The position numbers were made by a program, and so were the translations under genes. From positions 64,001 through 128,000 of the forward strand of contig CM000433.1 in assembly GCA_000165345.1 (NCBI GenBank): a DNA stretch of 64,000 bases, read 5' to 3'. This document shows positions 30,089 through 30,140 of this stretch, one piece after another (the first letter of the stretch is position 1; each line of letters opens with the position of its first letter). Under the pieces are notes generated by a model, which saw only the letters and a list, made by a program, of their open reading frames with translations, was not told where the DNA came from and ran no database searches.

Positions 30089-30140
30089 AATATTTAAATT
30101 TCAAATTAGGCGCCAGCGCCTAATTTGAAATTTAAATATT
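30089..30140. repeat. 52-bp perfect palindrome (25-bp arms, 2-bp spacer) with GGCGCC-A-GCGCC core
   Basis: aaTATTTAAATTTCAAATTAGGCGC-ca-GCGCCTAATTTGAAATTTAAATAtt. The arms are exact reverse complements. It lies about 93 bp upstream of the TMA7 ATG and about 360 bp upstream of the divergent Cys-rich gene. Confidence 0.85.

Follow-up and report, generated by a model that had tools for sequence, protein, structure and literature searches.

E2F sites in animal promoters are palindromic or paired elements of 8–12 bp that carry short T/A flanks and lie near transcription start sites, and overlapping or inverted sites occur among them, for example in the DHFR promoter (TTTCGCGCCAAA) and in the inverted pair of adenovirus E2. 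The E2F–DP heterodimer recognizes a symmetric CGCGCG-type core, and its partner proteins (pRb and others) are largely missing from Cryptosporidium (PMC3734150), the only apicomplexan genus in which E2F/DP has been retained (PMC12246861). [quoted passage not shown] 2013, PMC3734150). The consensus is written as 5′-[A/T][C/G]GCGC[G/C][A/T]-3′ in a review from 2025, according to which the role of E2F/DP in Cryptosporidium is without validation by binding experiments (PMC12246861). E2F-like is also the top motif of sporozoite ATAC-seq peaks, more than half of which were annotated as bidirectional promoters (Xiao et al. 2025 preprint, bioRxiv 10.1101/2025.01.17.633476).

The other described systems to which the present locus can be compared are mutational. 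A model of template-switch mutation at quasi-palindromes was reportedly put forward by Ripley in 1982. Small hairpin-loop inversions are known from plastid non-coding DNA, where the spacer flips between intact inverted repeats and the result mimics adjacent double substitutions. [quoted passage not shown] Expansion of inverted repeats at transcription-factor sites in promoters is also documented (PMC13100816). A search of a literature collection for C. parvum in combination with template switching found no report.

Here we analyse a 52-bp perfect palindrome in the promoter region of TMA7 and propose a two-layer account, which we consider probable: a conserved E2F/DP-type core lies within arms that were homogenized by template switching, as a near-neutral by-product. 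The palindrome lies in a 64-kb window (the whole stretch of DNA that was analysed), which has 23% GC and uses the standard genetic code. The window belongs to C. parvum: the neighbouring CDC50 gene (30611–31807, minus strand) encodes the same protein sequence as C. parvum Iowa II EAK88177.1. A ciliate origin, to which the low GC content, TGA stops and an apparent in-frame TAA in the Cys-rich ORF had pointed, was rejected on account of the Cryptosporidium matches of TMA7 and CDC50. The features of the locus, in window coordinates, are as follows.

29556–29726, minus strand: small Cys-rich ORF, 56 aa in C. parvum, the divergent neighbour, with its ATG at 29726
30083–30146, no strand assigned: extended imperfect palindrome with 31-nt arms, 94% complementary with 2 mismatches
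30089–30113, no strand assigned: left arm of the perfect palindrome, AATATTTAAATTTCAAATTAGGCGC, exact reverse complement of 30116–30140
30109–30120, no strand assigned: GC core GGCGCCAGCGCC, an inverted pair GGCGC-N2-GCGCC and putative E2F-type double box, conserved upstream of TMA7
30114–30115, no strand assigned: 2-nt palindrome spacer CA, which is CA or its reverse complement TG among C. parvum isolates
30116–30140, no strand assigned: right arm of the perfect palindrome, GCGCCTAATTTGAAATTTAAATATT, exact reverse complement of 30089–30113
30233–30391, plus strand: TMA7 coding sequence, 52 aa, downstream of the palindrome; related proteins carry Pfam PF09072

The palindrome is contained in the 506-bp intergenic spacer between TMA7 on the plus strand and the Cys-rich ORF on the minus strand. 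The best protein matches of the window TMA7 are from Cryptosporidium, and C. parvum, C. hominis, C. tyzzeri, C. meleagridis, L001 (a relative with 93% identity) and chipmunk genotype I all have the same TMA7 protein sequence (100% identity). The counterparts of the Cys-rich ORF in C. hominis, C. meleagridis, chipmunk genotype I and C. ubiquitum have the same N-terminus (MTNCEQCKC...), measure 70–73 aa and likewise stand head-to-head with TMA7; that of C. muris has 107 aa. The C. parvum ORF is shortened by a +1 frameshift in an A9 run (the T-run at 29559–29567 of the plus strand) that is present in 7/7 C. parvum sequences examined, and the apparent in-frame TAA is a genuine stop that results from this frameshift. 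We conclude from the comparison of these reading frames that the Cys-rich ORF is a real gene. Its protein gave no family match in Pfam, and a literature search for Cryptosporidium metallothionein returned nothing relevant. The original prediction had placed the palindrome about 93 bp upstream of TMA7, within a divergent promoter. Both points agree with our data: 92 nt separate the palindrome from the ATG at 30233, and the TMA7/Cys-rich pair is arranged head-to-head in nine other Cryptosporidium species or genotypes (C. canis, C. felis and C. ryanae being left out for the Cys-rich neighbour). On this distribution, the divergent-promoter arrangement is old in the genus.

Analysis of 30089–30140 revealed a 25 + 2 + 25 nt structure with arms that match at 25/25 positions around the centre CA, exactly as had been described. 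It is the longest inverted repeat of the window and is followed in length by (TA)n runs. When the window was simulated 200 times with a first-order Markov model (spacer 0–10), the longest perfect arm measured 11.7 ± 1.2 nt with a maximum of 17, and the analytic expectation for arms of at least 25 nt is 3.75e-7 per window; the earlier claim that the palindrome is far beyond chance is thus justified. A second copy of a 23-nt palindrome arm, sought in the window with up to 3 mismatches, was not found (100 shuffles also gave 0 matches), and a search of a metagenome collection with the arm gave no match. Independent C. parvum assemblies, both short-read and long-read, and read-set contigs contain the identical 52 bp, which indicates that the palindrome is not an assembly artefact.

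Weak symmetry is also observed outside the palindrome, to about ±100 bp, where the flanks score 24 and shuffled sequences 11 ± 3.8, and BLAST detects 80% reverse self-similarity across 30015–30210. A larger palindrome of about 200 bp was considered and is probably incidental, as its outer right-hand part is not kept in L001 or C. meleagridis. Much of this outer signal can be attributed to the composition of the bidirectional promoter, which is T-rich on the left and A-rich on the right.

The weak outer symmetry, together with the AT-rich arms and the low GC content of the window, is the kind of evidence that could be cited for a mobile or foldback (MITE-like) element, a chance low-complexity coincidence or an assembly artefact, to all of which we assign a negligible probability. 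A mobile element is opposed by the single-copy arm, by the lack of a match in the metagenome collection and by the presence of orthologous sequence at the same site in every relative, with no presence/absence pattern and no target-site duplication; chance is opposed by the expectation given above and an artefact by the agreement of short-read and long-read assemblies, while the outer symmetry itself is lost in L001 and C. meleagridis.

As single-stranded DNA, the palindrome is predicted to form one hairpin with a free energy of −22.9 kcal/mol (z = −8.35 versus shuffles). An Rfam scan of the palindrome returned generic hairpin models only, at 20–31 bits versus gathering scores of 50–230; the top match was a plant miRNA hairpin model (31.5 bits versus a gathering score of 90). 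Assignment to a structured RNA family was dropped, since all matches were far below the gathering scores. A stem of this strength could still act in RNA, as a 25-bp hairpin in the 5′ UTR of TMA7 or in an antisense or upstream transcript, where it would control translation or stability. The 92 nt to the TMA7 ATG are compatible with a 5′ UTR, the predicted fold is strong, and template switching is a known source of RNA hairpins. We nevertheless regard a role in RNA as very unlikely. It would need a transcription start upstream of the palindrome. E2F motifs typically occupy promoters or the sequence upstream of them. Scanning would be strongly impeded by a perfect 25-bp stem close to the cap, an unexpected arrangement for a gene that is associated with translation and encodes a 100% conserved protein. 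In addition, the sister species lack the stem, and the Rfam matches are far sub-threshold.

The centre of the palindrome is a 12-bp GC core, which lies 113–124 bp upstream of the TMA7 ATG and 383–394 bp upstream of the divergent Cys-rich ORF. The octamer AGGCGCCA (30108–30115) fits the published C. parvum E2F consensus W-SGCGCS-W. The second, inverted octamer, CAGCGCCT, misses this consensus at two positions in the CA allele, having been degraded by a central CG→CA change, and after this change one strict-consensus octamer is left in C. parvum and C. hominis. In the TG allele of C. parvum, the intact octamer is instead the right-hand TGGCGCCT. The E2F-like label given to the core in the original prediction agrees with the most over-represented C. 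parvum upstream motif (PMC3734150), and its reading of the core as GGCGCC-A-GCGCC is correct; the description as two inverted GGCGCC half sites requires revision, as the core comprises one full GGCGCC hexamer and an inverted GCGCC pentamer, with a single consensus octamer (AGGCGCCA).

The double core GGCGC-N2-GCGCC has its sole instance in the 64-kb window at this site. Related motifs in the window are concentrated outside long ORFs, although non-ORF sequence amounts to only about 33%: this holds for 6/8 GGCGCC sites and 11/11 GGCGGG/CCCGCC sites, and thus for 17/19 E2F-like cores. The remaining GGCGCC sites lack extended symmetry and show only 3–7 perfect bases per side.

The comparison of TMA7 upstream regions covered C. 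parvum, with six contigs or assemblies, and 11 other species or genotypes; these relatives included C. hominis (three contigs), C. tyzzeri, C. meleagridis (two contigs), L001, chipmunk genotype I, C. ubiquitum, C. canis, C. felis, C. ryanae and C. muris. An inverted GC pair is present 110–190 bp upstream of the TMA7 ATG across nearly all promoters compared, and the core is complete in nine further species or genotypes, among them C. hominis, C. tyzzeri, L001, C. meleagridis, chipmunk genotype I, C. canis, C. ryanae and C. felis. The double core was also sought upstream of C. muris TMA7, where it is absent. The forms of the core are listed here.

C. tyzzeri, L001, C. meleagridis, C. canis: GGCGCCGGCGCC, the ancestral form
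C. parvum (window allele), C. hominis: GGCGCCAGCGCC
C. parvum (second allele), chipmunk genotype I: GGCGCTGGCGCC
C. ryanae: GGCGCCCGCGCC
C. felis: GGCGC-N8-GCGCC, with an 8-nt spacer
C. ubiquitum: CCGCTGGCGCC, half-degenerate

The core is kept while the flanks become unalignable between the more distant species, which indicates that the core is under constraint. By motif identity, position and conservation, it belongs with the E2F-like motifs already described from Cryptosporidium, and E2F/DP would be expected to bind there.

The arms behave differently from the core. Conservation in orthologous TMA7 promoters, which had been suggested as a check, is found for the core (complete in nine relatives, half-degenerate in C. 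ubiquitum), whereas the long arms are perfect in C. parvum only. Complementarity was counted ungapped over 26 positions on each side of the centre and falls from 25/26 in C. parvum to 19/26 in C. tyzzeri, 18/26 in C. hominis, 16/26 in L001 and 13/26 in C. meleagridis; random centres in the window give 8.2 ± 2.7 of 26, and 18 or more in 0.23% of cases. Values of 18–19/26 in the sister species indicate that the ancestor of the parvum group already had a quasi-palindrome. The original prediction implied that the whole 52-bp perfect palindrome is the functional unit, which is not consistent with arms at 13–19/26 in the closest relatives.

The changes were located in an intergenic alignment that comprised C. 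parvum, C. hominis, C. tyzzeri, L001 and C. meleagridis and from which four alignment-end artefacts were removed. C. parvum-specific substitutions affect 6/50 arm bases (8 when two sites at which the sisters disagree are included) versus 6/456 other intergenic bases, an enrichment in the arms with Fisher p = 4e-4, or 1e-5 with the two extra sites. In the left arm, positions 6, 7, 15, 16 and 17 (and 20) have changed relative to C. hominis and C. tyzzeri and now match the right arm. The right arm is nearly identical to that of C. hominis and C. tyzzeri and differs at positions 11 and 20; the change at position 11 matches the conserved left arm, and at position 20 a T:A pair has become A:T. The derived bases at arm positions 6, 7, 11, 15, 16, 17 and 20 are all Watson–Crick complementary to the opposite arm.

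This pattern does not correspond to one switch-and-return event in which one arm is copied from the other. The left arm carries five or six of the changes and the right arm one or two, for which one template switch is insufficient; at least two to three events, or mismatch correction within an extruded hairpin, would be needed. The eight C. parvum sequences show no variation in the arms. Repeated correction of the arms could equally reflect selection for a perfect stem.

Selection is the substance of an alternative in which the whole 52-bp palindrome is a C. parvum innovation, either a cruciform-forming promoter element or a longer symmetric site that flanks the E2F boxes and would be bound by a dimeric AT-binding factor, and in which selection drove the compensatory changes. 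All eight changes on the C. parvum branch (8/8) raise complementarity, including the double T:A to A:T change; they lie on both arms and require several events, the predicted hairpin is strong, and the arms are invariant in eight C. parvum sequences. Moreover, an engineered inverted-repeat expansion in the yeast GRE2 promoter altered expression (PMC13100816). We nonetheless find selection for the palindrome quite unlikely. All sister species have imperfect arms despite an identical TMA7 protein and a conserved gene pair, diversity within the species (about 0.06%) is too low for arm invariance to count, and the same pattern arises by template switching without selection (PMC8604942). The other GGCGCC sites of the window do without extended symmetry, and the spacer inversion and the 2-bp insertion allele (both described below) point to mutational instability, which speaks against constraint.

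The 2-nt spacer is polymorphic within C. parvum. It is CA in the window and in the C. parvum sequences L003/L018, L015 and L016, and TG in the C. parvum contigs L002 and L004, which come from two independent runs and have three other linked SNPs in common. The arms of the two alleles are identical over 25 nt, and both spacer bases are replaced by their exact reverse complement. L002 and L004 are otherwise close to the window, with about 7 differing sites in 11.9 kb (about 0.06%, 99.9% identical). An assembly artefact as the source of the TG allele was ruled out by its occurrence in two independent runs and its linkage to three SNPs. In addition, the bases just outside the arms differ, so that no 30-mer is common to both orientations and a k=31 de Bruijn graph would be unable to flip the spacer. 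One further assembly, GCA_035232765.1, carries GGCGCCAGCGCGCC, which could reflect a further variant with a 2-bp insertion or a sequencing error provoked by the hairpin.

Outside C. parvum, the spacer is CA in all three C. hominis contigs (L008–L010), CG in C. tyzzeri, L001, C. meleagridis and C. canis, and TG in chipmunk genotype I and C. ubiquitum. Since C. hominis also has CA, this state is probably the older one in C. parvum. In the simplest history, CG would have changed to CA before C. parvum and C. hominis split, and the spacer would later have inverted inside C. parvum.

The two alleles could alternatively go back to an ancestral CpG at the centre that underwent C→T transitions twice independently, once on each strand; this CpG might be hypermutable in the single-stranded tip of a hairpin. 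A single transition is enough to reach either CA or TG from the CG centre of C. tyzzeri, L001, C. meleagridis and C. canis, and the occurrence of TG in chipmunk genotype I and C. ubiquitum and of CA in C. hominis implies that both transitions are recurrent in the genus. Such an origin is unlikely in our judgement. The haplotype groups are only about 7 sites apart in 11.9 kb (about 6e-4 per site), and an adjacent double change is very unlikely at this distance unless hypermutability is extreme; the CA common to C. hominis and C. parvum suggests that CA predates the species, and none of the eight C. parvum sequences has a CG allele. This alternative bears on the polymorphism alone and not on the nature of the element.

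The flip of the spacer shifts the sole strict-consensus octamer by 6 bp, from the distal AGGCGCCA to the proximal TGGCGCCT. One could imagine that the perfected C. parvum palindrome is a hairpin or cruciform promoter switch, in which the flip moves the intact E2F octamer and gives rise to heritable, reversible differences between lineages in the expression of TMA7 and/or the Cys-rich gene, in the manner of phase variation. We consider this a long shot.

The account that we prefer combines the constrained core with the mutational history of its flanks. The 12-bp GC core, ancestrally GGCGCCGGCGCC, would be an E2F/DP-type cis-regulatory element in the promoter shared by TMA7 and the Cys-rich gene. 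It would most likely recruit E2F/DP heterodimers at one or both of the abutting palindromic GC boxes, and the recruited E2F/DP may help to open or activate the bidirectional promoter. The 20 AT-rich bases on each side are not conserved, and the ancestor of C. parvum, C. hominis and C. tyzzeri would have had a quasi-palindrome of about 18–19/26. On the C. parvum branch, the arms are then proposed to have been homogenized by DNA-polymerase template switching between them (Ripley-type), in at least two or three steps. We infer this replication mechanism from the clustering and direction of the substitutions, and the perfect arms would then be a near-neutral by-product and not a selected structure. 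The process appears to be still active, because the C. parvum spacer is found in both orientations between unchanged arms.

If this account is correct, the TMA7 promoter offers a compact double E2F-type box that is conserved in the genus, and thus a convenient place to test the proposed dominance of E2F/DP in the transcription of this parasite. It would also be a clean apicomplexan example of a quasi-palindrome that was driven to perfection and then underwent a spacer flip within a species, and it cautions against reading selection into every cluster of "compensatory" substitutions near a transcription-factor site. On the practical side, the CA/TG difference resembles a pair of neighbouring SNPs, so that variant calling and isolate phylogenies in C. 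parvum could be misled, and the perfect hairpin may account for local errors of assembly or sequencing, for example the 2 bp inserted in one assembly.

In relation to the known Cryptosporidium E2F-like motif, the core of the palindrome has the same GC core within AT-rich flanks and the same intergenic upstream position; it lies upstream of a translation-associated gene, as do the motifs of ribosomal-protein genes, and in a bidirectional promoter. It differs from single E2F-like sites in that it consists of two abutting inverted boxes, and from other E2F-like sites, with 3–7 symmetric bases per side, in that the C. parvum core is embedded in 25-nt perfect arms. We know of no animal E2F site with a 52-bp perfect palindrome. 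The C. parvum locus resembles the yeast template-switch cases in its prior imperfect inverted repeat, in lineage-specific complementary substitutions that are confined to the arms, in the replacement, probably as a separate event, of the spacer alone by its reverse complement between perfect arms, and in the presence of a transcription-factor site in a promoter. Unlike the yeast coding-region cases, which have arms of 7–16 nt, its arms measure 25 nt, and unlike a simple template-switch product it has changes on both arms, for which several events are needed; the organism, moreover, is an apicomplexan parasite. Plastid inversions differ from the C. parvum case, which is nuclear, has a 2-nt spacer and lies within a promoter element. 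The locus is thus not a new kind of element but a new example of two known things, a known promoter motif and a known mutational process.

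Analysis of the Cys-rich gene that neighbours the 52-bp palindrome revealed that its reading frame is disrupted in C. parvum:

29504-29726, minus strand: Cys-rich gene, with a T-run at 29559-29567

Relative to C. hominis, which reads TGT AAA AAA AAC AAA at this site, the C. parvum gene is frameshifted at an A9 run (TGC AAA AAA AAA TAA), giving a product of 56 aa rather than 73 aa. Each of the seven C. parvum sequences that were checked, with both short-read and long-read data among them, carries the A9 run, and the missing tail, NKCTSEKPTETESKCCKC, remains intact one frame over. 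The truncation could be a recent event in C. parvum; alternatively, slippage on the A-run could rescue the reading frame. Cysteine makes up about one third of the protein, a metallothionein-like composition, and a search of Pfam returned no match.

The sequence between the Cys-rich ATG and the palindrome (29727-30088) is approximately 95% identical to that of the relative L001, which is about the same conservation as that of the locus overall (93% across 15 kb), and it is also well conserved in C. meleagridis. By comparison, the stretch from the palindrome to the TMA7 ATG is far more variable. The 29727-30088 segment may represent a long 5' UTR or additional regulatory sequence of the Cys-rich gene. 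Upstream of this gene, an ORF is broken at around 28200-28430 into two pieces (27231-28199 and 28426-29136); the same ORF is also split in two further C. parvum assemblies, L015 and L017 (GCA_035232765.1, CP141122.1), and is an unsplit gene of 626-646 aa in the C. parvum assembly L016 and in sister species. The window also contains 18 N bases, one of them at 29242. The source assembly is evidently of draft quality.

In L017, the site orthologous to the palindrome core (30109-30120) reads GGCGCCAGCGCGCC, where an extra 2-bp GC extends the spacer to CAGC. This reflects either a third allele or a sequencing or assembly error induced by the hairpin.

Weak additional inverted symmetry extends for about 100 bp on either side of the palindrome (30015-30088 versus 30141-30214), as exemplified by the pair AACACTAATTTCTATTTT and AAAATAAAAATAAGTGTT. 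Alignment of these outer flanks scored 24, compared with 11 ± 3.8 for shuffled sequences, and BLAST returned an 80% reverse self-match. Neither L001 nor C. meleagridis shows conservation of the right-hand part of this symmetry. The outer symmetry is probably a by-product of the T-rich/A-rich strand asymmetry that a bidirectional promoter has.

A second GC-rich perfect palindrome lies elsewhere in the window and is possibly another paired E2F-type site:

35805-35820: candidate site, 16-bp perfect palindrome TTGCCGCGCGCGGCAA, in AT-rich intergenic sequence directly 3' of the eIF3a gene

Throughout the window, nearly all E2F-like cores lie between genes: the sequence outside long ORFs makes up about 33% of the window and holds all 11 GGCGGG/CCCGCC motifs and six of the eight GGCGCC motifs. 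This intergenic bias agrees with the published genome-wide picture.
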